Below, piece after piece: positions 20,411 through 60,277 of a stretch of DNA of 64,000 bases; the stretch's first letter is position 1, and every line of letters starts with the position of its first letter. Source of the DNA: Dudresnaya verticillata (lineage: Eukaryota). The stretch is taken from contig OZ374559.1 of the NCBI GenBank assembly GCA_977862235.1, forward strand, positions 2,604,001 to 2,668,000, read 5' to 3'. Below the pieces are notes generated by a model. That model was given only the letters and a program-made list of their open reading frames with translations, had not been told where the DNA came from and made no database searches. Made by a program: the position numbers and the translations under genes.

Positions 20411-21305
20411 CAATGTAATGATTTACTGCTTCCCGTGGTGCGGCAAACCATGAGGCCCTGTGGCGCTAGAGCACTGCTCGTGAGCAGAGCAGGCTCACCC
20501 AGGGGATTGATGCACCAGTGTGACATATGCGTGCTCTGCGAATTGAAAGGTATATGGTCACGATTTCTTATATTTCGGACGAAGCAATTTGGTGCACCGG
20601 CCTCCTCAACGTGAATGTGAAAACTCCGTTTCATGTTAGGGTATGTCGTGGGAAACTTAATTCGGGGGTGGTCTGCTGCCGGCGCGCAAGCGCTCGGTAA
20701 TCCGTCACTAGTCATTCCAGCCATCGAGGCTTGCAGTAATTCGACAGTTCGCGGGCCCCGCTGCTCGGCGCGCCACTGGAGGGCAAAGCTCTCGCCGCCG
20801 CCCACAGTGGCTGGTCCAATCTGTAGAGTAGCAGAAAAAGGCACATGGAGTGGGTCACCGCGGAGAGAAGCGGTATCGAACAGGTACCCCCCTTTGCAGC
20901 GCCATCCATCTTCGCCTGGCCTTCCCTCTATGTTCCCTGCGTTCCCTCGTCCTAACTGCGGATTCCCTGTACCTACGCGCGCACGGCCCCACGCGCGTGG
21001 TGGTACGAGTCCCCGAGTCATCACAGGTGGACACAGAATTGTATGGAACAGAAGTTTCGGTGGGGCGGCAGGCAGCAACTGCAAGTGCAAGGCCACAGAT
21101 TGCGTTCGGCTGCCGAAGTCATTTCTCGACGATTCGCTATCGCAGATCCGAGCTGTAAGCATACGAATACTTTGGTTTTGCGACGAATTTCTTTGCCAAA
21201 TTTAACCAATGAGCCTTTTCCGATTTCGCGCCGCCGCCAACGACAGACCGAAGCAGACAATTCCCGCAGCCGAACAACATCGAACCAGTCGGCTGCGTCG
21301 CTGCG

Positions 21306-24461: not shown

Positions 24462-24740
24462 TGTAGAGAGTTGTTAAAAACAGAACAAGTCGATAGCTTC
24501 AAGCTGTGAACTTGAAGCAGAACAAGCCGATAGCTTCAAGCCGTGAACAGTAGTGTTTAATATTGAATGTTGCGTGGTTCAAAGCCAGCCGTTCTGGATT
24601 GGCCGTGAACCGCTTTGTGCTCTCGAGATGAGCAGCAATACAGTAGTAGATAAAGGCTCTCTCTCCTCCGAGGGAAAGAGGAGAGAGGCAAGACTTTTTG
24701 AACAACAGAGTTGGAGTGCTAGGACGCGCCGGAGTTTACA
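24462..24740 (+). repeat. 5' LTR (279 bp)
   Basis: tgtagagag...ggagtttaca; internal 37-bp-period duplication cagaacaag.cgatagcttcaagc.gtgaac. Confidence 0.95.
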
Positions 24741-28396: not shown

Positions 28397-30154
28397 CACC
28401 ACGGGGTAAAAGTAGGGCTATTTCTGTATTTTTGTACATTACTAATGTGTATATTCGTAGATTTGCGGCATTTCTCTAAATTTATGTATACCTTAACTAA
28501 ACAATTTGTACATTCTGCATATCTGAAATAGAGCTGCACCATCGCGTAATAGACATACTCTTCGAAAACTGAAGATATGTGTTATACAACGTGGTGTTGT
28601 CCGATACACATCTGCAAGTTTTCAACATTTGGGACTTGTGCAGAACTGACGCAGACCTGTGCAGGTCTATGTCAGTTCTGCACAAGTTGGGAAGGCAGTT
28701 CTGCTTTGACAAGATGCATTACTATATAATCTGCAACTGTAGAGATATATAAAGTACATAGTGGCAACATGTAAGTAACATGGCATTGGTTCCGGACTCA
28801 ATGGAGAGTCTGCTGCCGCAACCACGAGCGTGGGTGCGGCAGCAGACTCTCCTTCGAGCCCGGAACCGAGACGATGACGGCGCCGTCCCAAATGGGTGCG
28901 CGGTGGGGCGTCAGCAATCTCTTTTGGGGTGGTTGGGTGCTTGCCCCCGTTTCTCAACGTACAAAACGCACTCCTCCTCCTCCCCCTCATTTGGTAGCTG
29001 CTCAGCAAGGTACCTCTCTATCTCTACGCGCTGAACTCTCTCTCGCTCTGTCTGACCTGCGCGCGCGCTCGCTCTCTCCCCTCCATCTCGAGCCTGCGCA
29101 CCCGCTATAGACGCACGGAGCGCATCGCGCGCCCGCAGTTCTACCCAACGCCAGTCTCAAATGTTTCGCAGCCGCAGCCATCACCGCGGTGCCGCGGCAG
29201 TTCCCAACACCTCCTTAGCCCATGTGCACATGGCAACCCAGTCCCCTTCGGGGAGCACCTATTTTCACGAAAACACTCCACCTCCTGGTGGTATCTCTGT
29301 GCGCGAGGGTGAGATAAGTAAGCCTGTTGGAGAGGTTGCGCGAGTCGCAACGACGGCATCTTTGGTGCCAGTCCGAGACCGTGGACTACTCGGCCCGCAT
29401 CGAGTGATGATGCCTAGGCATCTTGCAGCTGCAAGATGATGCCCACGTTACTGTTACTGGCCAGTCGCCCGAGCGGAGCTCTCGAGTGCGTTGGACTATT
29501 GAACCCGCAGACATATTGTTGCAACAATACTGCGATTTATGATACCATATCCCGACCCACAAGCGCGTTTTGCCTTCCCTATCCAGGATACCAGTAAACC
29601 ATCGATTGCTCCAACCCGCCCACACCTTCCCAGCTGGGTGGCGGGTGAACGGGATGGCGGCAGGATGTGCGCGGTGGGGTGTACAGGTATGTCACCAGGA
29701 ACACTTGTCTCAAAACAGACCACTGTCAATAAAGTTCGACATGGTCTGCCAAGATCAAACGAAACATTGAAGACATGGAGACGGGCGGGCAGTGAGCACC
29801 ACCCGCGAGGCGCAAAGTTCGTCGCCAAAAGATGGTTTGGGGGAGGGAGGTGTTCTGTTATGGGAGAGTTGTTTACCCGCTGCAGAACGGCTGGTCGCAG
29901 CCACGAACAGCTTCATTGCACTGAGTGGTTATCAGCGCTACCAACGCACATTGTGAATGCTGTCACCGTCTCTCCGTCTAGGCATCGTTTGACCAGTACA
30001 AGAGCTCGAGATCTTGATTATTGTACAAATATAAACCTAGAGTTGAATAGAATGAGTGCAGTACGTACTTTTGAACATAATTCAACAGCACCTGTACAAG
30101 ATTCGAGGCTACATGACGACTGGAACAAAACTACACTTATGCACTGAGCATCTT

Positions 30155-33100
30155 TCATGCTGCGTGGCGCCTTCTGTAACCAGATGAAGTAACGTTTTCG
30201 TCCCAAACGACCCAGTTCGCGTTTGTCGGAGTCTGAGCACCACCAGTTGCCCGGCCGGAGAACCATGGGTATTTGAAAACGCATCCACCATCCCTGTAGA
30301 ACTGAAGTAAACCGTGTGTGTTGGATTCGAAGCGATCATTGCCTCTCTTCAAAAACACGGAATCCTGCCCATGTACACTCATCCCTTGGCTCAGAGCATA
30401 TGTTTTCGGAAGCCCTTTCCCTGCAGCCACTTTTTTTCCTCACTAGAAGGATAAGCGATGGCTAAATCTCCGCGGACGAACAAAAGGCTGTAGGGAGGTA
30501 CCAGAACCAGTCGCGAGGGTAGGGACTTTTGTAGTGCAGCTCGTGAGGTTGCACTCTTGATGTTCCCATAGATGTGCGAATGTGGCCAAATTCTCAGCGC
30601 AAAGGGCTGATATGCAGTGAAGAAGACACTAAGATTAAGCAACTCTGGAGGAACTGCATACTTCTTCAAAGGTTCAGTGGTCCACTGGTAGTCGAGGTGT
30701 TCACTTGGCCTGACATCTGAGGTTTCTTGATGAGAACTATGGGCGCTACTCCACCCTGGTTCCGGTTGCATGAACCTTGTATGCGGGCCCGTTTCCTTGA
30801 AAGAATCTCCTGTTTTCACCAGACGGGACCCTTGTAAAGGCATATACAGGGGGCGTTCCGCCGTCTGCACATCCATGTTTTCGAGGTATCGAGCGATGAA
30901 GCAGTCTAAACGACATTTCTCTGCGAACGCCATCGCGGAAGATGCACCCTCATCGGGAGCCGAGTTTTATGCTTCCTGTTGCATGTGCAATGATGAAAAC
31001 TCGAAAGTGCAACTTTGCAGGTACGTTTTGCCGGATCCTGTATGCCCTCCCTCTGATGTTGCATGAACTTTGTCTGTCAATAGATTACCGACAGCATTCC
31101 ATGCCCTGCTTCTGCCTCTTGTGCACTGATGCAGGTCGAACCTGCTTGTCGCGTACTCGAAAACGGTACTTATTCTAGACTTCAGCTTATTCCTAAATCC
31201 CCTGCCCAGTACCCCCGCATCGAGTGCGAAACCTGTGGACTCGAGTCTCCCGGACATGATCAGAAAATGTGTCTGGGCAGCAATACCCAGGTTGCCTAGC
31301 ACTTCTGGTCTTTCAACCGTATCTGCTGTTACGCCATTAACTTCGCAATCAGCCCGTCTCGTTTCTAGTATGTTCAGGTCTGTCTCGACAACATCACCCC
31401 AATTCATGAACTTGTAGAACCGCGACTCCTTCCGCACTGCAACTGGAAGGGAATCGACAGTGCGCGACCTCAGGTCATCGCGTGATGCCCAGTATCGTTC
31501 TGGTTCCATCATAATGCCATTCTTCGCTGCCCATTGACTTTGCATGTCATGATATTCCTGAAACATTTTAGTCTGCTCAGAAGGGCTTTGTCGCAATTCA
31601 ACCAGGACAGAACCAGCACTGACGTCTTCTAAGTTATCCAAGTCGTTGTGTTCACTTCCAGAGTCTTCTTCAATATCATCCCGTTCTTCCCTTGGCGCTA
31701 TCCGACGGCGTTTTGTCACTGCCAAAGGTGATTGGGGAGGGGATGGTGCATCATCGTCATACATGACAGAGTCAGTGAGCTTATAAGCTAATGAATTCAT
31801 TACGAGATGAGGGTCTGGGGAAGCACTTTAGCGTTTGCGATATTCGCCCTCCCCGCGCGAAGAATTGTTCAACTTGTGCGAATTACAATCTCGTGGAGCA
31901 ATACCAGGTTTGCTAGACCGGAGCTTTAGCCTGTCTGCTGCCTGTGAGGGGCCCCTCGGAGCTTCCACCTCTCCAGCTTTGATACCGCAGCGATGCGTGG
32001 CTGACCGGCCGCGATATCCACGCGACCGGTCCTGAACAGCCTCTCTTTGTCGCACGGCAACGGTCTGGATGTCGGAAAGTCGCTGCTCACCCAAATCAAC
32101 ATCAAGAGTTCTATTTGTCCCACTTCTTGGATGCGTTCTCAGCGGCCGCTGAGTCATTTCCCTTGTTCGATTCCACCGAAAATCAATATCTGAAGAGGCA
32201 TGCGCTTTTGACACTCTCCCGTCTACGGGACTTCCGCTTCTTGAAGGCCTTATGTCGTCAGAAAACGTACTACAGTTGTCCAGTGCTGTCCTTTCAGGCA
32301 ACTCCAAAGCCCTCTTAGAAAGATCACCGGACGAAGGATCCTTCACGTTGCGAAAACGGAAACTGCGTACTCCATTTGACATGTTTGGATCTGACCTCCT
32401 CCCAGTGCCAGCTGTGGATCCAATCTCATGAGGTGAAGCCTTGGCGCCACCATCTTCTTCAAGAGCTAAACCTGCTTTCTCTACAACTTTGGTACCTCTT
32501 TCTCTACCAGGCGATTTTCCAGGGGTATCGGTTTCGCAGTCCACTGCATCCTCTTCTACGACAGTTGCATCTGCGGGTGTGGCATCTTCGTCTTCAAGGT
32601 TGCTACTTTCTCCATTGTCAATTATCAAATGCAGACGTTGCAGTTTCTGAAGCTCTTCTTTAAGGGGAAGTTCTTCCAATGAACCACGCTTATAAGCTTG
32701 CTTGGGCTTTGGTTCGCTTTCCGATAAAAGTTTGGCGGCGCACTTCATCAATACCTTTTTGTCGCGCTCAAGAAATTCTGTTTGATGGGGCACATTAAGA
32801 CGCCGGGCCTTGGCTTTGTCCTGCAGAAACGTCCTTTTCCGGCACAGATGCGCTATTACCCCACAAAGACCCGCAGGGACCGTTTCTTTCTCGATCTTTG
32901 CCTGCCCACAATACCATACCGAATTAGGTACTGGTTCATTCCGTGAAGCGTGCTTCAAGCACCTGGTAGCTGATGCAGTCAGCAAGCGAACATATCTGAC
33001 GAAAGAAGAAATATCATCGGTATCCCACACAGTCCGCCTTTTTATCACGCCCACCTCGTAGAAATACCTGGAGTTAGCTGATAGTGGGCAAGCAGTCATG

Positions 33101-33594
33101 TCAACTGGCGCGCAGGCCAAAAACACGTCGTGAGTCAGCATCTTGTAAACCAAGCCACGGCCATTCTTCACCTCACAGAGAAAGCAAAAAGTGTTGAAGG
33201 CAGGCATGGTCTGAGTACCTAGCATCGAATGCGCTAACTTGAGGTACATTACTCTTGTCGAGCGCTGCAGATCACTAAAGTTTAGCGACGTGCTGCCATC
33301 ATCGCTTTCGTATAACATGCACTCCTTTTCTTTCCGTATTCCCTCGAACAACTTGTCTTTCCCCTTCCTGATAGAATCGGAACGAGTGAACCCATTGTCC
33401 TCAAGATAGCTGCGGAGATGAGTTACAATAAGTTTCTTGGCAGGGCCGACGGCATGGCTCGGCATGCGATTCATATCTTCAATTGCACGGAAATCCTTGA
33501 ATGTGTACACTCCGAAGTCGGGTTCGTCCCCGAGCAACGCGGACCTAGGTCCGAGCGGCCTTGGGTTCAGGAGATAACGTGGAACGATTCGCAA
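30155..33594 (-). pseudogene. Large (about 1100 aa) transposon cargo gene with C-terminal degenerate 2OG-Fe(II) dioxygenase-like domain
   Basis: ORFs 31828-33594, 30967-31800 and 30391-30933 are in one frame, separated by single TAA stops; frameshift at the T8 run near 30430; C-terminus is paralogous to 37766-38583. Confidence 0.7.
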
Positions 33595-34139
33595 GGTAGC
33601 TGCCTAGGATTTCTTCAAATGTGTTCGCGAGCCCACGCATTGGCTGTTAAACAAGCAGCAGTACAAGGCGAGGGCTGGTAGATGTGAAGAATAGCGATTC
33701 AGTGCTTGCCACAGCTCTGCCTAGCTCATTCGGTCCCTGTGTTTGTACCACAGTGTGGTCATGTGCGGGTAGAGAGAGCTGAAGAAAGTTCCAGCTCACT
33801 GATGCCTCCCGGAAGGTAGCAGCGGTCGCTCACATAGTGCTCTGATTTTGTCGAAATCTAGAGCGCTTCCCGAGCTAACCTGCGGTGTTCCTTTTATGGT
33901 AGATATTTTAACAATAAAATAGGATGTGAAACGTCCATGACGAGCTAGCTGGCAGCTGCGAGGAAGTACCACCCGAAGAGAGAGATGTATCCTGAAAGGC
34001 AGCTGGTAATTGGCTAAGTGTCGTATTGTTATCGGTCCTGACAGTTGTGGTAATGGTACCCCAAATACTTTACAGGACGCCAGTGGAAGAGCATATGATA
34101 GATTCGGCGGTGTAGTTTCGCAGCTCTTGCAGTGTCCAC

Positions 34140-35110
34140 AGCGAGAAACTTGGACGCGCTGATCACCACCCGCCGGGCCGTTTGTTTGCCGACGATTGCT
34201 TGCTACACGTCGAGTGACCCCACGCTCTACGACAGGCGCTTCGCATTTGCGACGATCGTCACTCGAGTGGGCCAAGGACTCGGGTATGACCTGGTCTACC
34301 ACCAAGTGCGCTATTATCCTTCCGACTCGACACCGAGGTCGTCCCAACTCGACCAAGTTCCAACTTGCGGGCCAGACCCTCTCCAACCCTGCGACGGCCT
34401 GCTATCTTGGCATACACATTTCCCCTGTTGGCCCCGGTGACCGTGCTGTCCTGCAACTGATAGCGTCTGCCAAGAATGTTCTTCGAGCACTGTCAAGCAT
34501 GGCATTTGTGTCTGCCAAGATGCCAGCAACGGCACTGTCACGCGGGCCATCGACAACCTCGACACCGAGTTCTTGCGCTTGTTCATATCGCAACGCACGC
34601 CCCGCATGCCCAGCTCGCGTCTCAAGAAGCTTCGAGCTCTGTTCCGCATCATCCGGCCGCTTCTGCGCCAGCGTATTCTACAAAGCAAGTTCGCGTCTTC
34701 CCTCCGCCGCACTGCGCGCTCCACGCACCTCCCGGAATCATGGCACGCTCGGCAAACTTTACTCGCTCTCCCGAAGCTCCGAAACCCGATGCTGGGCAAC
34801 GCGTTGGATCGCGCGCGATCCAGAACCCGACGAGCCCATCCACCCTGCATGCTGACTGCGTTGCCCAATGGCGCTCTGCATTTACCGGTCCGCGCAAAGC
34901 CGCAGTCCCCACCACACCACGCTTTGCCCCGGCGCTGCTACTCCCTGACCACCGTGACCGCCTGCTTGCTATCAGATGGCACTTATGCACCTTCGCAATC
35001 ACACCCCGTTGCCCCTACTCTCCTACGACGCTACGCGCCCATATGCCCTCGAGCTCACGAAGCTCTCGCACGACGCCCTCCAGCACTCGGACATCCGCTC
35101 AGTCTCATTA
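34140..35110 (+). mobile_element. Degraded LINE fragment nested in the giant transposon
   Basis: Near-identical to 6421-6975 over the shared part; RT tail motifs KCAIILPTRHRGR and YLGIHIS. Confidence 0.85.
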
Positions 35111-35869
35111 TCAAATAAATGAGCAGTTGCACTTCCAGCCCTCCAAAAGTGGAGACGTTGAGCAGCCTTAGCCGCGACTCGGCGACTGCGCTGGTGAGCA
35201 TCTCTTCTGCTTCCGGATGCCCCCACGGCAGCCAAGAGAGCCACACGGGGCCGGCCATTATGTACACGGTGAACAAGAAGGCGGACAAACTGTGCAACGG
35301 CTGCCTTGCGTCCCCGGCGGGATGCACGTCGCCACCGTGGGGTGGCCCCGTGAGAGCGCCGCTAGGGTCCACACCACCGCGGACATGGGCCGGAGCAGCA
35401 GGCCACACACGCGTGGTGGGCCGCGGCCCACCAAGCTGGCAGCTGGTGCGGAACGGCGGCAGCTGCTGCTGCTGCTGTTACTCCCCCTCAGAGGCCTGCA
35501 GCGCGACAAGCAGCGGCAGCACGAGGTGTAGGCCTGTGGTTGCCGTGCTTGTCGTTTGTACAAACGTTTGTTTGTTTGTTTGTTTTTCGTCTTACTTTTA
35601 TTTTGTGACGGTTATACACGGACGCGCGATGCAGCGCTCCATGAACTGTCAGCCCCGGCTGTAATGGCGTGAATCTATGAGCTGTATTTTCCGAGCTGCA
35701 TAATCTCCAAAAAATGGAAAACGAGGTTGTGTGTGAGAGCAAGCACGAAACCCCGCGCTTATGGGCGCCGGCGCTGTCCGAACAGCGGGCCACTCGTTCC
35801 TCCCATCAAGCACAATAGCAATCGGGGTTTTCAGCAACATCGACATGCAAGTGCGCACTTCTTCACTCT

Positions 35870-38583
35870 GTGCATTCCCGCCACAACGTGGTGGACGTTT
35901 CTCTGACCAGGCTCCCCCAGGAGCTCCGGGACCGTGGAAAGGCCCGCATCCTGCTCGCGATTCGCAACTTTCTCGCAAGCGTGTCAGTGATGGATGGGGT
36001 TGGGGAGGAGGAAATAGCCAGAAACGCTCGTCGCTTTCTGGACGAATTCAACCATGAGACTGGATTGCTCATCGGCTGCACGCTGGATGGAAACGTGCTT
36101 TCCTTTTCGTCTCTACCTTCAGACGAGGAAATTATGTGGTTCAATGTGGCCACTGTCTTCGCGAAGAAGGCGTATGTTGATGCCCTTTCCGTTTTCAGGG
36201 AACTATCAAGACTTCAGGGAGGGCCCCGTATTCCTATTTATGTGCTCGCGTGCAAAATGTTCTTGACGTTGCGTCCTATAGAAATGCAGAGTGTACTGAA
36301 AGTTCTATGGGGTCGCTCACAATGCATGCACGACATTGGAATGGAAGACGCGTTTATTTGGGATCCGGAGAGCTGCATGAGATTTGTATCTCACACAACC
36401 GCTCTGCTACATTTCGCAGACATGACTGCGGCGAGAATGGAGCTATCTAACTCTGTGCCTTCAGGTCTTACTGTGCCTCAAAAGTACAGCTTGAAAGTGC
36501 CCGCTCTGTCGAACTCGTCAACTTTGACAGCTGCAGTGATTACCATAATCGCTGTAATAACAGCTCAAGAGAGATATGATATCAGGACTGAGCAGAGCTA
36601 TTTGATGGAACATACCGCCGATATCGCTGCAGCTCTTGGAAAGGTTCTGCAAGAGAAAGTGAATGCTACCCTTAATCCACAGAACAAAGTAACGCTTGCT
36701 CTGTCTCTAGTTCTTACGGGCAGTGGATACCGTAGACCAGTCTTCACACGAGTTGCGGGAAGAAGTGAACGGAATGGCGATGCCAATGCCGCCGTGGCCG
36801 CCAGATACACCCATGTTTCCCAGCTCGATGCACTCCGTTCCGATAATGACGAAGGAAATGCCATAGGCATTCCTGCTCATCAAGTATCTGTATTGCATAC
36901 CAGCAGACCTGCAGGAGATCACCATGGAGGTTTCATTAATGAAGTTGTAGTGGATGAGGGCGATGGTAACGCGACTCCGACGGGAAATAATGCGAAGAGA
37001 CTTCGAATAGATAAGAAGATACCGGAATCTAAATCTTTAATCCTCTCCTCGATAAGTCGTGTGGATGGAAAAAGTCTTCAAATTGCGGCACTGGAGCCCG
37101 AGAGAAACCGAGCTGGGACCGCTGGTGAGAGCGCTACTCTTCGCGACCATAGTATCCACGCTGAGGCATCATACTGGGACAATGTGGGAACGTTCAGGCT
37201 GAAGAGGTACCCCACCAGGCGAGTCACAGCGAGCCGAGGCCGCGACGGTCCCAATGCGTTCCGTTCGTACCACGCGATGGAGGAGGAGGCAGCATCTCTA
37301 GACGAAATGGTTGCGCTGCCAGACGTCTTTATTGTGAATTCATCCATTCGACCTGCACTGAGAAACAGACGCTGTGCCGTGCTTGGAATTAGGGAGGAGT
37401 CCCCAACTTTGGACTTTCTGACGAAGGAAGACTTCATGCAAATCACAAAGAGCATAGAGATGTCTGCCGCGACTGCATTCAGATTGCAGTTTGATTCTTC
37501 AGCAAACGAGGCAGCATTGCGGCATCAGGCCGTTGGCCATCTGCAACAGATGGCTGATGCGCTCTATACCAAGGGCTACGCTGTGGACCGCAGTCGTTTA
37601 ACGAGAGGTGCAGATGTCGAACAAGCTGCACGAATTGACCGCATTATCAATTATATGGTCCCGCTGCAGGACATGAGGGAAGACACATTTTAGCACGTCA
37701 TCTGCACAGACCCCAATCGGAGCCTCGCTGAAATCAAGAAGGACTTTGCGAGAAAGCCCGATGAAATGGGTGCCTTAATGCGGTGGCAGACCACAACTAA
37801 GAACTTTTCGGACATGCTGTATGAAAAGGAGCACGACGCGCCCTGCGGTGATGCGAGAAGCGAAGGTGGGGTGTTTAGGGACAAAAGCATGATCGAGGCA
37901 TATCTGGCAAGGTACGTGGAGTTGCTCGGGCTTCAAGATACCACACAACGCCCATGTATATGCCTCTCCGTGGGTTGCAGCTCATATGTACAGGTCAAGA
38001 AAGCGCAAGGCAAACACCGCATTCAGACTATATGGTACCACACCCGGGGTGGCACCCATCTGGAATTGCGACGCCCGATGCCGGAGAGCCCCCGGCTCTG
38101 GTCAACCTCACGGTAATGTTCAGCGGAGAGCAGCCTTTTGCGATTCGGGTTTGGCCATATACCCACATTCGGCAGGCAACAAGAAACGCGGAGGAGAGGA
38201 AGAAGATATTGGAGACGACGCCGTCTTGTCTGGTAACGGTCCCTTCGTACAGCATATTGCTGTTACGAGGAGACATTATTCACGCTGGTTGCAGCGGAGT
38301 TGAGATGAAGGTCGCGTTTGGTACTGATGGTCTGCGTCCGTACCCGCTCACCCCATTGTCCGACCTGCAAGATAACCGAAAGGAGAAGCTCTTTTCTGTG
38401 CGAGTTGGGAGTCATCTATGCAATGTACGCGGTCATCTATCTTTCGTGCGTTCCGAAGGACTTCGGTACGACGCCATTTGGTCCGTCGCAGACATCGAAC
38501 TAGGGGAGGATAGCAAAAACCCCTGGCATCTCAATGACGCCAATTATGAAGTCGAGCACAGATCTGTACGTTTAATTCAATAA
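35870..38583 (+). pseudogene. Large (about 900 aa) cargo gene with C-terminal PhyH-like 2OG-Fe(II) dioxygenase domain
   Basis: ORF 35870-37693 continues in frame past one TAG into ORF 37766; 1-nt frameshift near 37950 joins ORF 37954-38583, which has QTPHSDY, IRVWPYTH, VPSYSILLLRGDIIHAG and NVRGH. Confidence 0.75.
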
Positions 38584-38609
38584 ACTAGCTACGCGTACAA
38601 GCGGGTAAA

Positions 38610-39790
38610 TTGGACAGACAAGAGATGTCCATTTGCATGCGCAACCAGGCTCTGCAGAGAATTGCAACACGCTTACGGTGCGACCATGCTTTCCATGGAA
38701 AGCATGGTCGCACCGTAAGCGTGTGCATTTCTTTCCCTGCCCCAGAGAAGGCTCCTTCTGAAAACGAAACGGGCTCTGTTCCAAGGCAGCATCATGAGTT
38801 GCAAGCCGCGCACGTTGGCAAGTGGGAAGGGCACGCGTACGTATTCGCCATAGCAGACGCGAATGAGCTTGATATACGACTGGAGCGCCAGTTTCGCGTG
38901 GAAAGCGAGACAAGCGAGAGAGATGATAGCAGTTTTGAATGGTCCTCGTGCATTGCGAACTCTTCTGTCGACATTCTGTCCAACGTGTCTGTCCCGGCGC
39001 CAAAGTATAAAGACGTATTAGTTTCTGGTCGTGTTGTCTGCGCGGGGGGTAGCTATGCATTGAAGAACGCGCGAAGCGAGAAAAATGAGCCGGTGTCCAG
39101 TCCCGCCAACCTTACGATAAGCGCCGGATTTCTCAGAACAATAACGGCAAACAAGGCGACGACGGAAGAGGTGGAGTTATGCATGGCTTCAGAAGCGGGA
39201 CGGGGTCGTATGCGACGAGACCGAATCGTATTGTGCACTTGTCCCGCTAGTCCATCTTGTGGAAAGGCCAAATTTCGGTATGTTGTCTTGCTATCAGAGC
39301 AGTACAGTGGGCAAGAAGATTGCAGTGCCATTCCATCAGTTGTGGACCCCAACGCTAATGCTCGTCAAGCAGAAGTCAGTGGTTGCTCCGTCCTTGAAGG
39401 AACTTAGTCCGGCAGAGGAGCTCTCTTTCATCCAGAATATCCGCCGCAGCCATACCGAGCAGCCAACACGAAGCTGAGCTTCTGGCGTGCTGACTCCATA
39501 TCTGAATCGGACGTCACATGGGTTGATTACGATCTTGGTGAGGGACCTGAACATGACTCGAAAAGCAGGGCACGAACCGTCAGGAAGAAGAAAGTATCAA
39601 AGCGTGTTGCTGCAGCTCAAGCATTTGACCAAAAGCGGATCGCAAGGTGTTCTTTGCTTTCCCGGGAGTATATGGTGCAGGGCAAGGAACCGGAAACATT
39701 TGCCTGGCAGGAGGTCCAGCCTGGCAATGAAGTACCATCTCTGTTTTCACCTCGAGTTGGCAAGTTTGTTGACGACTATGCGGGTGTATT
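38610..39790 (+). pseudogene. Hypothetical cargo gene with one in-frame TAG, truncated at the gatA fragment
   Basis: ORF 38610-39407 reads through TAG in frame into ORF 39654; no family recognised. Confidence 0.5.
38667..38724. repeat. Perfect 58-bp palindrome without a loop
   Basis: acacgcttacggtgcgaccatgctttcca|tggaaagcatggtcgcaccgtaagcgtgt. Confidence 0.95.
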
Positions 39791-40700
39791 GTACGGGTGC
39801 AGGAATAGTCATGATATCGTCAAGGTACATGGCGAGGGGATCCTTTCTCATTTCACCAAACTTGTACGCCGGAGAAGTTGACACAGGAGAGATGAGTACA
39901 TCAACGCCTTGCGCGAACGCATCTTTGAAGCGCCTTGCCATCAATGCGCGAGCTCTTTGTGCACGGCGATAATACGCGTCATAGTAGCCGCTTGAAAGAG
40001 CAAACGTCCCGCGCATAATACGTTTCTTAACCTCATAACCAAATCCATTCGCCCTCGATTTTGCGTAGAGCTCGCTTGACGTGCGCGCGTCCTGGTCTCT
40101 GACACCATATCGAACACCATCATAACGTGCTAGATTTGCAGACGCTTTCGAGAACGCAAGAACAAAGTAAGCTGCAGTTGAGACGGAAAGCGAAGGTATC
40201 GAGATTGACTTGACCGTAGCACCAAACTGTTGGAGAATGTCGACGCCCGCTCGGACGCTCTGCGCTACATCTGGATGAACGCCCTCTCCCATGGCTTCAT
40301 CAATGATACCCACAGTATAGCCAGAAAGATCTGGGGTATTCATTAGACCCTCTGCGTATTTTGGTACGTCTGCATCGACAGATGTGGCATCCATGGGATC
40401 CTTGCCTGCCATGATCTGTAGCAAGAGCGCGGCGTCCTGCGCAGAATTGCAAATCGGGCCTGCAGTGTCCAGCGAGGAGAAACGGCCCTGCTTGAAATGC
40501 AAGAAGCTGTACATGCCATCAAGTTCAAGGACAAACATGCAGAAGGCGGCTCGAAGTTTGCGCAGACGTGTTAAGGGAATCGACGCAGAAATGGAAGCCA
40601 TCCCGTCACGACTAGAACTCCTGGTCCTTGCTGCACAGCTGTGACGCTGAGACGCTAGCGTCTTCTGGTTCTTCACAGGAAAACAGGCATTTGGTCTCAT
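39747..40700 (-). pseudogene. gatA: Fragment of Glu-tRNA(Gln) amidotransferase subunit A, internally deleted and 3'-truncated
   Basis: SSLDTAGP, AGKDPMDATS, ASANLARYDGVRYG, GFGYEVKKRIMRGTFALSSGYYDAYY, DPLAMYLDDIMTIPA; the amidase GGSSGGS core and the C-terminal end are absent. Confidence 0.88.
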
Positions 40701-41968: not shown

Positions 41969-43413
41969 CCTGTGCTGCTGATATCAGCAGCGCGTGATTT
42001 GCAGCTCATGCATGCATTCGCGGTTATCTCTGCAACGATTTCGAAACGGCCTTTTTCAACGGGCGACACACCGGGAAGGGTTTTGATTGGTCGCGTACAT
42101 AATGGTTTCCGAGCTATGGCCATTTCACACATTGCACCCGGCCTCCGTCCCACAGTCTCCGCTCCAGCGCACGGTCCTGTGCTGCTGATGCATGCATGAA
42201 TTGCAGCTCATACATGCTTGCAGAGCTGCAATTTACACACGTATGCATGAGCTGCAATTCACGCGGAAGTCTGTGTAACGATTTCGAAACTGCCCATGTG
42301 GAGTTTTGGGGCGTTGTAGCTTTAATGCCCCATGGTCTCTAGACGTATACTATCGTTGCGCTACCATTTTCCGAGATGGAACGTGCACCATTTTAGGAGT
42401 TAACTGTTGCGTTGTGAGCTCCCCTTCTTACCCCGGCCGCCGTCGTCGTTTACTTTCCAAGTCGTGTTATTCACGAAACGGACTTATACGTCCTACAGGC
42501 TGACGGCCCATGGGCCGGGGCGACTGCAGTCGCCCTGGCGTTGTCGGGGCCAATGTGCTCATGCGCCGCACCGATGCGGCTAATTACCGCTTTCTGCTGG
42601 GTTCGCAGTGTTCTACAACCCTGTTGACCCGTACGCCGCGTGAACCCTCTACAGCGCTCGCGCGTTAGGCGGAGCGCGATCCGACGCATCTCTGAGAGCA
42701 CTCGTTCTATTCTTTTACTGTCCGGTGTGCTGGATCGGCAGAACCGGACGCTTTCAACATTCGACACGCCTGGGAGGGTTTTGATTGGTGGCGTGAATTT
42801 TTTTTCTGAGCTCTGGCCCATTGCGCCCGGCTTCCACCGATGGAAGCCAGGATATACGCGATATCCCGCAGGGCCCACTAGTGCAGGATCCTGTGTTGCT
42901 GATGCCTGCATGAGCTGCAATTCACGCGGATGCCAGTGTAACGATTTCCAAATCGCCGTTTTCAACGACCGACACGCCTTGGAGTGGTTTGATTGGTCGC
43001 GAACAGAATATCTTTATGGGGTCTCGCCGAGGGCGTCAATTGCTATCTCTCATGCGGGATTGTGCGCCTCTGCTGTATACTGCTGCAGCATGCAGCGATA
43101 ATGATACGTGCACGATGTGCCGCAACGTATGTAGCGGCTCAGAACTGTGTCTGGCGACACGGCTCTTACTCGGCGATTTCAAACCAATGAGCGATACGCA
43201 TTGAATCCATAAAAATGAACCCCAATACGGATCCGAAGAGGGGGTAACCCAACCATTGAAGTGTGAAACAAATAGGTGAAATGCCAATCGAGGTGGCTAG
43301 CCGCCGCGCAGCTGAGTAAGTCCACCGGGCCTTTCTTCATCTCTAACTGACTCCGCAGTGTCGAGCGCTGTTATAACAACATCTAACGGAGTTCTTACGC
43401 TGTGGAGTGATCA

Positions 43414-46400
43414 ATGGCATGTGTAGGCACTAAGAGAGCTGCAGGCGACAGTGCTGCGGAAGGGAAACTTGTGACTCGGCGTAAGGCTGCGTTTGTATCC
43501 CTGGACACAATACTCGAGAGATGTGGGCTTCCTACTTCCACAAAATTATCAGTGGACTGTGCAACTAACATGCTGATGGAAGCGACGAAAGAGTTGTGCG
43601 GATTGAAGATTCCCGGTTCATTGCGAAACAGGTGCGCCACCATTGTACAATTGATTTTTCGTACGCCTGTCATCGCATACGCGCTTTCTGCTTCTCGCAA
43701 TGCTCCTATTTTTTCTGTTCGAGGCTGGATACTTTTTGCAGGGAGCGGTTGTGACCGGAAGCTGTACACCTTGGGATTCCTGAGGAGGTGGATCGCGCTG
43801 CCAGGTGATGATTTAACACTGGGACCGGCAAAAGCAGGATCGTACAAGGGATTCGTACGCCTGCTTGCTCAATTACAACCGCAAGCAAGAACATTCTCAT
43901 TGTCAATATTCTTTCATATTCTTGGAATATGCTCCATGCTGCAATTAGTTCAAGATGCCGTGCCACGCGTGGGAAACATTTCTGCGGAATCTGCACGGAA
44001 TGGAATGGTCCCCCTGAACATTGAGACAGTTCTGTTTACTCTGGTCACTCGAAACGATTTCAGTCTTTCAAACATCCACTCAGCGTTCGGCGCAGATACC
44101 ACAGAGGCCATTCGAGCTTCGTTCCAGAAGTGCAGCTCACTTCTGGCAACCGTCGAAAAACTTCTCGAACGTATCCTGGGTTTTGCTGTGGAGAGGAAAA
44201 AGACCATTGCTCGCACATCTAGTTCGGGGAAACGATCCCTGCTAGGTACAATATGGAGAGTTACTCAGGATGAGCTGTGTGACTCAATCTGTAACCGCGA
44301 AGGAGCAAAAGAAGTATACTTTATGTTCTCGAGTGTCCTCCGTGATATATTAGCAGCATCGGGTGTTCAAAGCTTTCACACACGGATCTGCGAACGATTT
44401 ATGCTCTGCTTCTTGGAGGGCCTGGAGCCGTACTTGCACTCCAACACTTCCATTTACCTGCAACCACGTCCATACTTCCAAATTTGTACACCTAGCATTA
44501 TAGTGGATACACATTGCCAAGGAACACCCTGCACCCCTTACCCGGCAGCTTATGTATCATGCCCAGGGAAGTCAAATTTGATGAATGGAAGATCAGGGAC
44601 ACCTCTACTGGTTGATGCGAATCATGAAGAGTCGGGAAACGATATTCCCTGTTTTAGTTCTACAAATGAAAGAGTAAGAACCGATGTCGATATGACCGAC
44701 ATTGCCAGGTTAGTTGGTGAGCTTGAAGCTACTCCTGGAGCCATCCCCTTGAATTTGGAAACAGATCCACTAATGATACTCAGTCGTGTATCCATTCGGA
44801 CGACAAAAGTGTCAGAGCACCGCAACAGACAGAGCAGTTATTGCCACACCCCGGCACAAGGCGAAGATCATTTGCAGGAAAGCAACGCTCTCGAGATTTC
44901 ACCCTCACTCGCAAAGCCTGATTTTTCTCAAAGGCGACGTATATGTATGGAGGAATCGATTGAACACTGGATCCGTTTATTGCGAGATGTACCAGAGCTG
45001 AAAAGGGATGGGACATTGTTAGAATATGGGATTGTGCCAGTGGATATCTCGGATGTATTCCGTGTTTTGGATATTGAACGATACGAGGAGAAGGAACTGG
45101 CTTTTTGCAATATGTGGCGAGGTGTACTATCCACTTCATGTTACATGTGTTGGACGCTGAAAATATAGACCTGCAGGTCTTGAGAGATTTTCCCTCGCGG
45201 TCTCAGCAACCCTTCACTGCTACACGTCTTGCTTCCTCTGGAAACCACGCTCGACGTACAGTTACAATACGCTCGAGCAGAACTGCAGATGTTCGAAGTC
45301 GTGATGTTCTGGAGCTGAAGTTCAAGAACAACAGGGTGAGATGTGTGGCAGGCGGGGTTGTTGAAAATGAAGATGGCGAAAGGTCAACACCGGGTTCGAT
45401 AGAAGTTTTCTTCTCTTGTGCGGAAAACTTGTCAAGAATCGAATGTATTAATGACAACAGTACTATGACCGCATCTCACGTTATGAATCTTGACATCGAG
45501 TTTTCGGCATTTACCGCCTTTGGAAATATAGGTTGTGTACCTCTTAACTTGCGGAAGATGATTCTGAATCACGACAATAGCACATTTGAAGGAAGCTTTG
45601 AAATTTCAACAGTATGTGATAGAATACCATCGGGCTCGCGGGATGCCTTGAAAGGTGTGCGAGAAGAGCGACATTTAAGTTTCGAAGAAGAGAATTTAAT
45701 TGCAACCGTCTGCTATAAGCTTAAGCTGTGGATGACTTTTCTGCCCAACTTCGAGGCATTCGACAAATTTCTACTAGTACAGACTAACCCCACCATCGGA
45801 ATATATGCATTTTTCGCCGCAATGATAAGATGCATTTGCTATGGGTTCCCTCCTAAGAGTCGTCATAATAGAGAGGGGATGACAATAAGATCTCAAATGC
45901 TGTCTTGGACAAGGGAGAACACCCGCAAATGTGTTCGGGGGCAAAATGGAGGTTTTGGTTGCCGTGGCGGAAGGACGATGCTGAGAGCGTGTATGAGGAT
46001 ACCCATTATCGCGAGCAAGAGGGACGAGGTAGAAAGCCTCGTCCGTGAGCTCGAAGACATAGAAATTATAGGAGATGGCGAAGAATTGATGGGTATTTCT
46101 TGGTACAGCATACCAGGAACGTCTCACCTTGATCGTACCTGCTTGAAGTCTCGAACGCGTCTTGGACTTCTTCATAGCAGCCATTTCGTGATCTGTACTC
46201 CAGAAGCAATTCCCGAGCTTCTCCGAGATATTTCCTTGCTTCATGAGAGCTGTTGTTCTACTCACTTCGACGCATCATTCTTCCTCAACGGCACAGATAT
46301 TTCTGTACCATATTTCTTTGAGATGATACAGTGTGTCTCAAACCTGTCCGGGCCAATTATGATGTTTTCAGCAGAAAAAGACTTAAGATGCGAGAGAAGA

Positions 46401-46670
46401 AATACGTCATCAGTTCGTGATGCAATCCACCTCTCTATAATGGAGATGCTTTGGAGATCCAGCACTCACTTCCATCGGGTGGTATTGGATGAAAATGACG
46501 TTAAGGATCGTGACGAGGCTCAGAAGAGAGATGATTTCTCATTTCATGATAGTGCTCCCCATGGAGCAAACTCATTGGTTCACCGCGGAATTCCTCGCGT
46601 AATGGACAATCGAAGGGTGAGTAGAAATCTCCTACCTGAAATAGATTTGTTCCGGAGAGCTGCAATATGA
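43414..46670 (+). pseudogene. Large hypothetical cargo gene (two overlapping ORFs, probable frameshift near 45105) with C-terminal SF2/SNF2-like motif remnants
   Basis: 584-aa and 521-aa ORFs overlap at a T run; HFVICTPEAI and FHRVVLDE motifs. Confidence 0.55.
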
Positions 46671-46904: not shown

Positions 46905-49900
46905 TCACCCTTGATGTGGTGGATAGCCCTTCTCTCGATCTAAAAGTCTAAATCTCGCTTCTAAAATGTGCTCCGGGTGCAGAACTGAACTACCATTTTC
47001 ATTTAGAACACAAGATGAAGTGCAGCTGTGTAAAACACCTACTCTTCGAGTACTACTGTCCAAGATTAGAACTGAAGGCCCTTTCTGGGGCTGACTCACA
47101 GAACATTCGTCTTGATTATGCACTACACGTATTGAGGCCTGCTCCAGTGCTTTTTCTTGTTCATTGTCCTGTTTACACGGAAGCACAAGTACACCTGCTC
47201 CATTGCCGCTGAATTGATCTCGATACAACGATTGTTGTCCTCCCTGTCCCCTATGTTCGAAGACCTGCACAACGTACCAATACGAGATCTCCTCAACGAT
47301 TTCAATACTGGAATTGTGGAGATACTGGCTGGAGAGTGTCGTTACAAACGGCCAGGATACTTTCCATCGGAATGCTTCATGCTTCAATTCCAGTGTCTGA
47401 ATGATGTCTCCGATGTAAATATCATATGAAGCAGGAAATCGATAAGAAGACAATCCAGTAAGTACAGCTCTGTCGGCCAAAGAAGAGATCGAATTCGGAT
47501 AAAGGGCTCGGAGGGTTTCTAGACCTTTTCGCCGAGCCGTAGAGAAGATGATGCGCCATTGTACGTCTGAAGCATCGTCAGATGTTCCCTTAATTCCCTC
47601 GAGGGAACTGCCCGTGGGGATTGACTGGTCAGTGGGGATTGACTGACCAGTCAATCCCCACGGGCAGTTCACAGTCTCTCCTGAACTTCTTTTCTGGGAG
47701 TGGGAAGTCGCTGTAATTCTCCAGCGATTGGTCTTCTCTTCACTTGCAGGGTGGATATTTATTACTGATCGTCCTTCTTCAGCCAAAAACTTGTCCACAG
47801 TTCCAATGGGGCCGAGTGCGTTCTTCAGAATTAGAATGTCATCCTTCTTCACTTTTCCCTTCCTATCAGCGTAGTATTCCGTTCCGAACAAGAGCCGAGT
47901 AAGGCTGAGAAAATACTTTTCTTCATCATCACGTTTATGAATTTTTTGCGACTCCCTCAACTCACTCACAAGGATGTTCAGCCTTCCTTGCCAATCGTTT
48001 ACTGCTGCAGCTGTCACGGCGTTTAGCTGCGGATTCGTGTTCTTAGATCTGGTAATTGTTCTTTTGAGGGCTTGGTGGGCTTTTTCACAAACCAGCTCGG
48101 AGACTCTGCGTATGTGACCGATATTTGGAAGGAGACTCATGCCGAGTTCCCTCAAACGATGTGCATTTGGGCGATCCAGTTGCGACCTGAGCTTTGATGC
48201 ATCTTCCCACCGTCTTTGAAGTATTGCACGGCGTTTAAACGCTTCTCTATCCCAGGAATGTTTTGTCCCGAGACGCCTTGACCATAATGCCCGCAGCTCA
48301 GCAACTTCCTCAGGAGGAAAGCACCAAATATCATTTGCATCTTCAAGATGCTTATTTATACTCCTCTGAGTTTTTTTCCAGGTTGTGCTGTCCGTAGTTT
48401 TCGTTGAACTGGGAAACCACTTTCGTTCCGTCGATTTCTGTTTTAGGCCAATACCACAGGTCAGAAACAATTCTTGAGAATGAACCGACAAGGGCGATTG
48501 CACCCAGGCATTTTTCGGACGGTATTGCGGCGCTTCTTTGCTGGGGATTGGTACCAGGGCTACAAGATGTAACTTCAACTGCCCTTAAAAACGCGTGTTC
48601 AGATACGAAAAGCAGCACATAAACCTCCGATAATGTCATCGAAAAGAGCTGCACTGCTCTCATATCAACGACTCGATTCTGTGTTGGGAGTCGAAGGTCT
48701 CGCATTGCTGAAACTGCAAACTTATCGAAAAGGCGCCGGTGGTGTGGTGTAGGCAAAACTTGCAACACCGCATTGATGCAGTCCTTCGCGTGTCCTGTTA
48801 GTAAAAGGTCCGGACCAATTAACAAACAAGCGTATGGGTCAAGGACACCAGGAACAACTGGCAAACCATGTAAAGGTTTTGGAATGGACGCTTGACATTC
48901 TTGGAAAGCTCTCGCCATGTCATGCAATACACAGCGGCCTTCCGCCCCGTTTTGCTTCATTCCCAGCGTCCTTAAAATCTCGTCATCAACCCCGCTTTTG
49001 CGTACCGAATCATGGCGGGACATATCCCTCCGCGACCCTTCCTGGCTCCCGTCCACATCCGAGTGCAGATGCCTGCAATTGACCGACATGTTCCACTTCC
49101 TAATTGTCACGTTCTGTATTTCTGCTCGTGTGAAGGTGCACATATGACAACAGGCATTTGCCGTATGTCCCAAAACATCAATGGCGGCATTTAGAGCAGG
49201 TGTGTCTCCAATACATCCTACAAGGTCTAGGAATATCTTGATGGCGTGTCCATCCGCATCATAGTCGTCGAAGCCTTCCGTCATTCCTTTCATGATATCT
49301 TCCTTTAACACCGAGAACACGACGTCAAAAACCATCCCAGGCGGTGTGAAACTTAAAACTCGCACAGATAAAGAACTGGATCGCTTCTGCGGCGGTAGGT
49401 TCAGACAAACCATATAGATACCATCCCCAGAACCGCTCCTCCCCTCCGGTATTCTGAACCCATCCCAAAAAAGGAGAAACTTGTAGACGAAATACTGTTT
49501 CCCATCTTCCAGTAATCCTCTACAAGGGACTTTTCGAGAACTTGACGATCCACGAAGCCCCTCTCTGACCTGCATAAGCCGTATCTCCGCAATCCCGTAC
49601 AGCTCTTGAGCTGTATCTCTGTTGTCATTTTCTGTATCAAAGATACTCACACATGCCTTCGTAAGGTCCTCGACAGTTTCAAATGGCATGTTCTGCACCG
49701 ATTTAACACAGAAGAATGACCTCGATGTTTCGGTAGGCTTTGTAAGAAACATGTGTACAATGATGATATGAAACACTTCATTACTGCAACGGCTGTTTCT
49801 TTTGCCACGAACTAATGTCAGGGTATCCCCCGTCCTACAGATGCCTCCTCCAATCTCATACTCGCCAATTGGTACATGCAGAATCTCAGCCATGGATTTC

Positions 49901-51306
49901 TCGACCTCGGTAAGTGCGTTAATTTCTTGCAATTGCGATATGCCAGTCACCGTGGATCTCCAAATTGCTCTAATCTCACCAGCAAGCACAGAGCGGTTCT
50001 TGTAATCTAGGTCTTCTCGTTGATAGATGAATTGCTCCAGAACTGTTTGCTTCACCCCGCCTGCACTGAAGCATACCACTTGAATTATATCCCCGACTTC
50101 TGCCCTGTACTGCGGCCCCTTGCATGGAATTGATCCCGCCTTGTGGAAAGCATCAACCTCGATGCATCTTAAATGGCCATAGAATCGGCTCCTGTTGGCA
50201 ATAAGGGGCCAATCGTCAACACAATCCCATGCCTTTATGCGAGGAGTCGTGGTCGCATCTGCAGCAGCTGTCGAACACATGTGTCGAAAAACTGGTCCGA
50301 AGCTCACATCCATTCTTGCGTACTCACTCACAGGAATTATCCGTACCAGTGAGGCGCCTCTACTACGCACAACAAGGGAGGATGGTACACCAGGACTGCG
50401 TGTGTTGACATCGTGCAGCTCTTCGACGGCCTTCGCTATCAGGTTTTCTTTCACGAAGCTAACAAAGTTCTTTTTGATCGTTGAGTAGGACGGCATGACT
50501 CGAGACATTTTCAAACTTTCATCGTAACCAAATTCAGATTGAAGTGCAATAGCTGGAGAGGATGTACCTTCTTTCTGCGATCTCTTCCACGGGGTAACCG
50601 CTGTTGAGTTGAAAAAGGTGCATAAATGAGAGAGTATGTTGTAATGTGACCTAGACATGGCCACGCTACCAGTAACGAGTAGGAAGGAGAGAAGTGTTTG
50701 CCACCTCAAGAGCGGAAAATATGAATTGGACAACCCGACTTCTGTTGATGGCCCGCCTAATACATTTCTGGCATCTCCTGGGATGGATTCCACAGTATCG
50801 TCGATATCTGTATTATATATATCGAGCTGTCTCTCTTCGACATCACTGTCGTTCTCAACACTTCCAATCTGCCCCACCCGTTCATCAAAGTGACCTTCAG
50901 GGTGCATCGATTCTGAAAACGGAAAATCTCCTTCGGGGATAGCCTCATGTTCATCATCAATCGACGAATTAGCTCCAGGATTATCAAAGTCGAACATGCC
51001 AGATTTGCCCCGGTGGTGAGTTTCATGCGATGAACTTCCGTCTGGTTCCAGTCCCAGTCCGCTAACCAATAACTGTCCTTGAGGCGCGGTGGCTCTTGTC
51101 ACTTCATTTCCATCGTCGGTGGCTCTCAGCTCCGGTAGCGCACGGACTCCATTGGGCATAGGATGATTGTCAGGTACAGCAAGACCAGTCTGTATTTGTC
51201 GCCTATGTGGCTGAATCACAGTCTTCGTATTGTACAGGCGGCCTTTGAAACTTCTTCTGTTCCACCCTCTGCGGTCTCTCTTCTTCATTACTTTCCTGAT
51301 ATACAC
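46905..51306 (-). CDS. CMC/EnSpm(TnpD)/Plavaka-like DDE transposase, split by a 1-nt frameshift in an A7 run near 48375
   Basis: LLFWDGF...SGDGIYMVCLNLPPQKR...TPPG, IGDTPALNAAIDVLGHTANACCHMC, PDLLLTG..K in ORF 48352-51306; PNAHRLREL...GHI...SELVCEKAHQALK in ORF 46905-48578. Confidence 0.8.
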
Positions 51307-51709
51307 AAGCGTTTCTGTACTTCTTCTGTACTTGTCAGCTCGGGTTAGAGGGAGCTGCGTTTCATACTTCAGTATTCATGATTTGCGGAGATCAGGTACC
51401 AAGACATTCCAAAACCGCAAACCGGCATCTCCCTTGACCTGCGTAGTACACGATTTCATTCTAATTTGAATTGGTTATACCCTAGCGAGTATAACGGAGC
51501 TCCGTGGAGCTTTTGTAGAAATACGAATATATTTCCCTCCATAATTAGTGGTGGGCTGGCGATTCCGAACACGACGAATCCGTACTCGGATTCGCCAGCT
51601 GGCGAGACCTGTACATGTATCCTGGTCCATGACCACACGTTTCGAGGCATACACTCCCTTGCGCATGTGGGTGCCCCCGATCTGAACGTGCGCGAAAAGC
51701 ACATTACGA

Positions 51710-57654: not shown

Positions 57655-58275
57655 TCGGTGCGCATGACTCCGAAAGGTATGCGGACGTGGGTGTTCGGTG
57701 TCGGCGCGCGGGTGGACGAAAGGTGTGTTGGTAAAGGTCTCAGCTTTTCGGTGCGCATAACTCCGAAAGCTATGCGGACGTGGGTGTTCGGTGTCGGCGC
57801 GCGGGTGGACGGAAGGTGTGTTGGTAAAGGTCTCAGCTTGTCGGTGCGCATGAGGGAGAAGGGTGAACGGCCGTGGGTGTTCGGTGTTCGGCGCGCGGGT
57901 GGACGGAAGGTGTGTTGATACAGATCTCAGCTCGTCCGTGCGCGTGAGGGCGCAGGGTGTGCGGGCGTGGGCTTTCGATGTTCGGCGCGCGGGTGGGTGG
58001 AAGATGTTTTGATACAGATCTCAGCTTGTCGGTGCGCATGAGGGCGCAGGATGTGCGGGCGTGGGTGTTCGGTGCTCGGCGCGCGGGTGGGCGGAAGATG
58101 TTTTGGTACAGATCTCAGCTCGTCTGTGCGCATGAGGGCGCAGGATGTGCGGGCGTGGGTGTTCGGTGCTCTGCGCGCGGGGTGGAAGGAGGATGTGTTG
58201 GTACATATCTCAGCTTTTCAGTGCGCATGACGCCGCAAGGTGTGCGGGCGTGGGTGTTCGGTGTTCGGCGCTCGG
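57655..58275. repeat. Subterminal tandem array, about 6.6 copies of a 93-95-bp unit
   Basis: Units start at 57655, 57748, 57841, 57935, 58029, 58123 and 58218 (tcggtgcgcatg...gtgggtgttcggtg.tcggcgcgcgggtgg...tctcagct). Confidence 0.93.
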
Positions 58276-58505
58276 GTTGAAACGAGTCGTGCAGATGCAC
58301 TTCGTTATTGTGCAGTGCATCGAACCCAGCTGGGTATGGGAGTGAAAGGCGCTGGCGCTGTGCATTAGGAGAATGAAAAAACGGTTAATAGACCTCATTT
58401 TTTCTCTTTTTTAGACAATCAGAAACTGTAAAAAATATATATTCCGCATATCCAGAACAGTGTTTCAAAATAGACATTCAGGTGCCATTTTTACCCCGTG
58501 GTGAT

Positions 58506-59948: not shown

Positions 59949-60277
59949 ATTGGACGTTCATGTTTTCTCAGATCCATCCCACGTACAACAGCACGGACAA
60001 CAACGACAGCGTTGACAGCCCTTACACCTCTAAATGGATCTGCTGGGCATCACGTCCTTTTTTGTGTCCGGGCATGGATAGTTTGTCTATTCACGCTGAA
60101 GCTAGAGTACATGCGAGGCACGAGCGGAATAATTCCTTCTATTCCGGGACTTTGCCACGTTGATGTTTGTTTCGTTGCGTCGAAAAGATGGATTGTGTGG
60201 ACAATCAGGTACAAGACCTCTGAACGGAAGCAGCGCAGCTCGTAATCATTATCTACTTACCGATTGCCCTTCGAACA

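Follow-up and report, generated by a model that had tools for sequence, protein, structure and literature searches.

The window, i.e. the whole stretch of 64,000 nucleotides of Dudresnaya verticillata DNA that was analysed, holds a young Gypsy retrotransposon whose integrase is interrupted by a recently inserted DNA transposon, and the gene under study, a broken oxygenase gene, lies inside the latter together with a diverged head-to-head paralogue, a transposase gene and several further genes (Table 1). The two Gypsy LTRs (24462-24740 and 59670-59948) differ at four of 279 positions, and the pol frame, followed by Pfam, stops in the integrase at 28396 and picks up at 58504. When duplication lengths of 0 to 4 were tried, only 2 joined the flanks as halves of one integrase frame, and the 15-bp terminal repeats occur once per direction in the whole window. 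The CMCT clade is defined by CA..TG ends and a 2-5 bp target duplication, as described in the available text of PMC12730594, and the element has CA..TG termini, inverted repeats and a 2-bp duplication. Its ends, CACCA..TGGTG, share four of five bases with those given there for PlavakaB (CATCA..TGATG), being one base off, and differ from those of PlavakaA (TGT..ACA). Among the 17 relatives of the transposase, Pfam gave weak matches to Plavaka in two (E 0.05-0.06) and to Transposase_21 in one (E 0.001). The initial annotation had regarded the oxygenase gene as transposon-borne, which the terminal repeats, the target duplication and the relatives found beside related transposases now show; it mentioned neither the element ends nor the minus-strand paralogue, both of which are present.

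Table 1. Positions of the transposon, its genes and repeats, and the host retrotransposon in the window.
Feature	Position	Strand	Remarks
Host Gypsy chromovirus-type LTR retrotransposon	24462-59948	+	LTRs, Pfam pol frame
Complete CMC/EnSpm (Plavaka-like) DNA transposon, 30,107 bp	28397-58503	.	Terminal inverted repeats, 2-bp AT target duplication
Left terminal inverted repeat, starts CAC	28397-28411	+	Perfect 15 bp
Paralogue, same build as oxygenase gene, head-to-head	30391-33603	-	Two in-frame TAA
Nested LINE fragment, separates oxygenase gene from paralogue	34163-35118	+	
Oxygenase gene (fusion of N-terminal region and PhyH-type domain, PAG3-like)	about 35846-38583	+	ORF frames; start uncertain
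Hydrophobic, probably folded N-terminal region, about 300 residues	35880-36770	+	Shared only with paralogue
Predicted Fe/2OG oxygenase domain	37529-38475	+	Family profile, model, Foldseek
Oxygenase motif residues	Q 38011, H 38020, D 38026, RGD 38266, distal H 38281, R 38428, H 38434	+	
ORF directly behind oxygenase gene	38589-39790	+	One in-frame TAG, Cys cluster
Single perfect 58-bp palindrome	38667-38724	.	84 bp past oxygenase stop
Captured gatA (Glu-tRNA amidotransferase A) fragment	39792-40487	-	C-terminal half only
Degenerate-repeat cluster	41992-43009	.	Upstream of 43411 gene
Gene of about 1080 codons	43411-46670	+	Frame switch at T run near 45100; convergent with transposase
CMC/Plavaka-type DDE transposase	46905-51375	-	Frameshifted at A run near 48370
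Accessory gene without assigned family, candidate PAG1	51686-53662	+	Divergent from transposase
Second accessory gene, no assigned family	53725-55902	-	Matches in 3 of 81 loci
Further ORF	56231-57286	+	A single TAA in frame; nothing matched in the libraries
Subterminal tandem array, 6.6 copies of 94 bp	57655-58277	.	
Right terminal inverted repeat	58489-58503	-	Perfect 15 bp

The transposase has 17 database relatives (33-54% identity) and displays D (WDGF, 49467), D (motif at 49227), CxxC (49149) and E (motif at 48086), in keeping with the CMCT pattern of a DDE enzyme that has C(2)C and H(3-4)H between its second D and its E; where 90% of 16 aligned relatives have a His, this copy has Leu. A perfect hairpin with 29-bp arms (47605-47670) lies within its frame and introduces no stop, possibly a footprint or a local inverted duplication, and two palindromes (28634-28687 and 28779-28876) follow shortly after the left terminus. 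For the candidate PAG1, tblastn matches were obtained in ten of 81 loci at the same place and in the same orientation; a Tudor/PWWP-like stretch (..W..WW.A) was seen by eye in it and in 11369-12130 of the metagenome locus L042, the two having no BLAST link. The gene at 43411-46670 occupies the position held by a ParB-methyltransferase gene in the metagenome loci L042 and L029, and it showed no methyltransferase similarity with a profile of three methyltransferase sequences; the same profile of related methyltransferases found nothing among the 929 window ORFs, and Pfam gave no SET or PF01555 methyltransferase match in the element. No palindrome array was found beside the oxygenase gene in 33500-36000. 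The gatA fragment matches Amidase at E 5e-46 and covers positions 195-418 of 466 of TIGR00132. The nested LINE fragment matches 6428-6972 at 94% and by eye resembles the RT frame at 61118-62314, and a 70-bp LINE 3′-end family recurs at 7082, 14566, 19098, 41506, 41677 and 60968, two of these copies being nested in the element.

Several further features were observed elsewhere in the window, i.e. inverted copies, 90-96% alike, of a low-complexity ORF of 940-950 codons that has no Pfam match (7877-10687, minus strand, and 21213-24083, plus strand); an ORF of 633 codons at 16634-18535 (plus strand) that contains a Hint module (E 2e-25) and weakly matches fasciclin; an ORF at 723-1892 (plus strand) of tandem 87-residue PG_binding_1 (peptidoglycan-binding) repeats in a eukaryotic context; and a Roc GTPase-like fragment at 60224-60997 (plus strand) interrupted by a LINE 3′-end.

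As assembled, the oxygenase copy is a pseudogene. One frame is open from 35819 to an in-frame TAG at 37691-37693 (624 codons), which separates two open pieces, and reopens to 38116, while a second frame (37879-38583) carries QTPHSD, RGDIIHAG and NVRGH; the switch between frames lies near 37952, so that both lesions named by the initial annotation, this TAG and a frameshift near 37950, were confirmed. The first in-frame ATG is at 35990, and the similarity to the paralogue starts about 20 codons past 35846. An alternative genetic code was ruled out, as the in-frame stops are a mixture of TAG, TAA and TGA. The divergence of the LTRs corresponds to a decay of about 0.7% per site (0.2-1.8%), a clock that is based on four differences and can be reset by conversion, and by this measure 6.9 stops (1.9-17.6) were expected in 22.6 kb of frames and five were seen. 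Because the stops are no more numerous than neutral decay predicts, the oxygenase gene and its paralogue were probably both intact when the element inserted, with decay coming after.

Relatives of the oxygenase were reached only via transposase neighbourhoods. Word-indexed homologue searches with the oxygenase gene and with the paralogue returned no relatives, a metagenome scan with an alignment of these two sequences gave none among 45 pattern matches, and none of 66 pattern matches in viral contigs was an oxygenase relative; a single weak 29-residue match in prokaryote genomes was disregarded. A scan with the transposase alignment yielded 80 metagenome loci, mostly short. As for the co-occurrence with CMC transposases that the initial annotation had proposed to check, two of these loci hold an oxygenase gene, and only five extend 6 kb beyond the transposase, so it is testable in few. 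L042 and L029 share one layout, in which the transposase gene converges with a gene for a ParB-like/N6-N4 methyltransferase (PF01555 E 4e-14 and 2e-11, respectively) and is accompanied by palindrome arrays and a divergent ParB-like gene; the latter ends with QPPHCD..RGDLVHAG..NVRCH in L042 and is cut before the ligands in L029. The L042 protein P0026 is an intact relative of the window oxygenase, and a search with the L042 protein retrieved 103 relatives. The elements at L042 (136-12130), L029 (2454-13521) and L037 (2685-4205) are intact or partial, their ParB-like/N6-N4 methyltransferase genes have no SET domain, and their palindrome arrays are clean, with 60-bp and 168-bp periods.

The initial annotation had read an H-S-D, the His of RGDIIHAG and the Arg of NVRGH as ligands at the spacing of a double-stranded beta-helix oxygenase, and these were confirmed at 38020-38028, 38266-38289 (His at 38281) and 38422-38436, respectively; when the element was shuffled 200 times, an HxD/E followed 50-130 residues on by RGDxxH with no stop between them never appeared. 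A profile built from the enzyme domains of 69 relatives, the window sequence being left out, picked the oxygenase gene (E 1e-23) and the paralogue (E 2e-18) among the 929 window ORFs. The ligand columns are near-invariant in the relatives (Q 52/52, H 50/51, D 51/51, distal H 53/54, R 52/54, last H 52/53), HxD..H is kept in all 46 relatives that span both His columns, and every conserved ligand residue of QxxHxD, RGDxxH and RxH is found in the window oxygenase. The profile places the domain start near 37529, and not after the frameshift, so the TAG and the frame switch both fall within the enzyme domain and the N-terminus measures about 560 residues. By hhalign, the window oxygenase aligned with P0026 at E 1e-5; one family member, named from Pyropia yezoensis, matches it at E 4e-13 and, together with the Bostrychia preprint discussed below, points to a red alga as host. 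In the family tree, which took 53 of 72 rows and lost the paralogue to a length filter, the window oxygenase stands on a long branch beside P0128, P0130 and P0114 with support of 88-92, a position that is not reliable for its origin.

The window oxygenase is predicted to be a PhyH-type Fe(II)/2-oxoglutarate enzyme with a double-stranded beta-helix, as the initial annotation had proposed and as the ligands, the family profile, Atlas features, a structure model and Foldseek support. The Atlas features of the last piece of the gene fell into PhyH clusters (0.94; 28 of 30 matches in the PhyH set). A model of the 178-residue core built with 48 sequences reached a pLDDT of 76.9 and a pTM of 0.72, although the insertion that separates the distal His from the Arg was modelled at low confidence; an earlier two-sequence model (pLDDT 34.5) was set aside as unusable. 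The fold check suggested by the initial annotation, run on this predicted core, returned beta-helix matches: all 23 listed of 500 Foldseek matches were Fe/2OG oxygenases, among them KanJ, SptF, FtmOx1, SnoN, SnoK, GriE and a proline hydroxylase, and the best of those listed had E 2e-4 and probability 1.0. The fit was modest (TM about 0.47, rmsd 6-8 Å) and names the oxygenase superfamily, not the substrate. None of the 23 listed matches was a TET/JBP, AlkB or JmjC protein. Like KanJ, SptF, FtmOx1, SnoN/SnoK and GriE, the window oxygenase has HxD..H and a late Arg and would have a beta-helix core, but it shares only 10-17% identity with these stand-alone small-molecule enzymes, which have no N-terminal fusion and are not transposon-borne. 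Pfam, NCBIfam and PDB sequence searches with pieces of the oxygenase gene gave no match; Pfam PhyH at cut-off matched none of the window pieces and one of 48 family members at E 0.012. A PDB profile search with the 48 sequences returned only weak oxygenase rows (E 0.17-1.7), and a Smac helix match in it was spurious.

The N-terminus of the oxygenase gene had no match in the Pfam, NCBIfam and PDB sequence libraries and no usable one in the Atlas. It aligns with the paralogue at 19% identity (pairwise E 7e-6), and the middle part of the gene follows collinearly (E 5e-7), which supports the fusion to the oxygenase proposed by the initial annotation, its length being about 560 residues and not 700. 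The ParB-type motif DGxHR, present in 11 of 17 long relatives including the closest by score, is absent from all six frames of the element, a ParB-region profile of 15 relatives found nothing in the window, and the best score of the window N-terminus against the family N-termini, 21.1, was reached in one of 30 shuffles. By analogy with the relatives, an unrecognised region would occupy the place of their usual ParB-like domain. As six of the 17 long relatives likewise have no DGxHR, swapped N-termini are not unique to the window gene; P0095, P0108, P0117 and P0129 are long family members with two further non-ParB N-terminal types, i.e. repeated N-terminus swaps. Since the window N-terminus matches no family N-terminus, its DNA targeting is an assumption.

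The paralogue matches the oxygenase core with 38% identity over 141 aa (E 3e-26), and the two genes are 22%-identical copies. It reads H-T-R at the canonical HxD and RGDLAI at RGDxxH, the distal His being replaced by Ile; its two altered ligand codons differ from those of the oxygenase gene by five bases, and an HLD 27 residues downstream could substitute for the HxD. The C-terminus is ambiguous, either FRKH followed by a stop or, after an A run near 30433, a continuation of about 93 codons in another frame. The latter, in which the Arg is replaced, resembles the oxygenase tail (anchored test, 3 of 3000 shuffles), so the paralogue probably runs on in this way; the distal His is missing in every reading. 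The paralogue has likely been kept in frame as a partner without catalytic activity, and because both genes were probably open at insertion, its ligand loss would predate the decay of this copy.

A comparable gene has been described in the red alga Bostrychia moritziana. Its PAG3 encodes a ParB-like region and a putative 2OG oxygenase, adjoins tandem inverted repeats and is proposed to modify its own element, and PAG3-type genes were reported on several unrelated transposon families (bioRxiv 10.1101/2025.02.11.637652). According to the same preprint, as far as its available text goes, Plavaka elements make up about one third of the Bostrychia genome, the oxygenase cargo has not yet been assayed, and the best HHpred match of PAG3 is 2OPW. 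Going by this published description, the window oxygenase appears to belong to the PAG3 kind: it is likewise an accessory gene of a giant Plavaka/EnSpm element, with a long N-terminus, a C-terminal putative 2OG oxygenase and no InterPro domain, and most PAG3 copies are decayed as well. Structure 2OPW we take to be human PHYHD1. The layout of L042 and L029 is that of PAG2/PAG3 in the preprint, whereas the window gene has neither the ParB-like N-terminus nor the adjoining tandem inverted-repeat array, and its element has no PAG2 (N6-methyltransferase and SET), is 30.1 kb long versus 17.4-19.1 kb, and contains two divergent copies, one of which has lost metal ligands. That a PhyH-like oxygenase accompanies a Plavaka transposase is already published (bioRxiv 10.1101/2025.02.11.637652); new relative to PAG3 as described there are the ParB-less architecture, the paralogue that has no distal His and the missing methyltransferase partner. 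A limited literature search found no publication beyond this preprint on PhyH transposon cargo or on a ParB-less or twin form, and the available part of PMC4738411 yielded nothing on the oxygenase family.

Oxygenase cargo is also known in fungi, where PlavakaB, EnSpm, KDZ and other CMCT elements carry TET/JBP genes for which anti-silencing is proposed (PMC12730594, available text); the window element resembles these in combining a CMCT transposase with a 2OG oxygenase within complete termini, and differs in that its oxygenase is of another family. Outside the oxygenases, a parallel would be offered by VANDAL elements, whose encoded factor is believed to target the sequence of the element itself. 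Their anti-silencing proteins are, we presume, those named VANC. In Arabidopsis, these Mutator-type elements encode a non-enzymatic anti-silencing factor with a demonstrated effect (as cited in bioRxiv 10.1101/2025.02.11.637652), whereas the window factor is a predicted enzyme.

Taken together, we favour, with a probability of roughly 0.6, the reading that the locus is a broken accessory gene of a 30-kb CMC/Plavaka-like transposon that encodes a predicted PhyH oxygenase of the PAG3 family, which likely acts on a base or chromatin mark of the element and so aids its expression and mobility. The intact gene would yield an Fe/2OG oxygenase brought to the element by its N-terminus; there the enzyme, judged from its relatives, would hydroxylate or demethylate a base or chromatin mark, possibly with the paralogue as non-catalytic partner, and removal of the mark would let the element escape silencing and stay expressed and mobile. 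That the action is on the element's own DNA or chromatin is suggested by relatives in which palindrome arrays separate the gene from an N6/N4 DNA methyltransferase gene arranged head-to-head with it; since neither a methyltransferase nor a SET or ParB motif was found in the window element, this writer-eraser analogy is not self-contained there, and the nearest solved folds among those listed, which act on small molecules or amino acids, speak against an element mark as substrate. A bolder proposal, which we hold to be doubtful, is that ParB and the methyltransferase were dropped in this lineage, leaving a two-gene module of common ancestry. One gene would encode an active PhyH-type oxygenase and the other, head-to-head with it, a pseudo-enzyme that shares its new N-terminal domain; the dead copy would serve as a subunit that reads or targets, and the DNA or chromatin modification concerned would be one that TET, AlkB and JmjC enzymes do not make.

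With the element and the fold unchanged, the substrate could instead be a protein, the enzyme hydroxylating or demethylating histones or element-bound proteins against H3K27me3-type silencing. This would suit the SET domain of Bostrychia PAG2 and the H3K27me3 silencing of transposons in Cyanidioschyzon, both taken from the available text of bioRxiv 10.1101/2025.02.11.637652. It would also suit the finding of no CpG depletion in the element (observed/expected 0.83-1.01), which implies that DNA cytosine methylation may not be the pressure and counts slightly against 5mC as the target. Histone demethylases are typically JmjC proteins, of which there is none among the listed fold matches, and L042, L029 and L037 have as partner a DNA N6/N4 methyltransferase that has no SET domain, so we regard a protein substrate as unlikely. 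Still less probable is a TET-like oxidation of 5-methylcytosine that lifts silencing, the analogy drawn by the initial annotation: fungal Plavaka and other CMCT elements do carry TET/JBP (PMC12730594), and Gracilaria and Gracilariopsis are reported to undergo changes in methylation (PMC9861306, available part), yet neither the window pieces nor the 48 aligned members have a Tet_JBP match in Pfam, the listed fold matches are PhyH-type with no TET among them, and CpG is not depleted.

There is an equally slim chance that the gene is a passenger from metabolism, encoding a small-molecule hydroxylase that does nothing for the element and captured as the gatA piece was; that piece does show that the element takes up host DNA, and the closest listed structures are natural-product enzymes. 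Against this, the relatives keep a fixed layout next to transposases of 29-36% identity and most of them are ParB-like fusions, the gene is reported on several unrelated transposon families in the Bostrychia preprint, and two 22%-identical copies have been kept nearly open. It is very improbable that the lesions arose in assembly and that the organism itself carries an intact gene. Of the four frame changes examined, three do coincide with homopolymers of 6-7 bases and one with a homopolymer of three, as is typical of long-read errors, but slippage in vivo favours such runs too, the TAG is a substitution, and in-frame stops also occur in the paralogue, the 38589 ORF and the Gypsy pol in the number that decay predicts.

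The window thus provides a fully delimited, recently inserted element, in which the ParB-less architecture and the dead twin indicate a module more plastic than described. With the intact relative P0026 and a family alignment of near-invariant ligands, the question of the substrate is directly testable, and should its target prove to be DNA or chromatin, the enzyme would represent a third eukaryotic route beside TET/JBP and AlkB.
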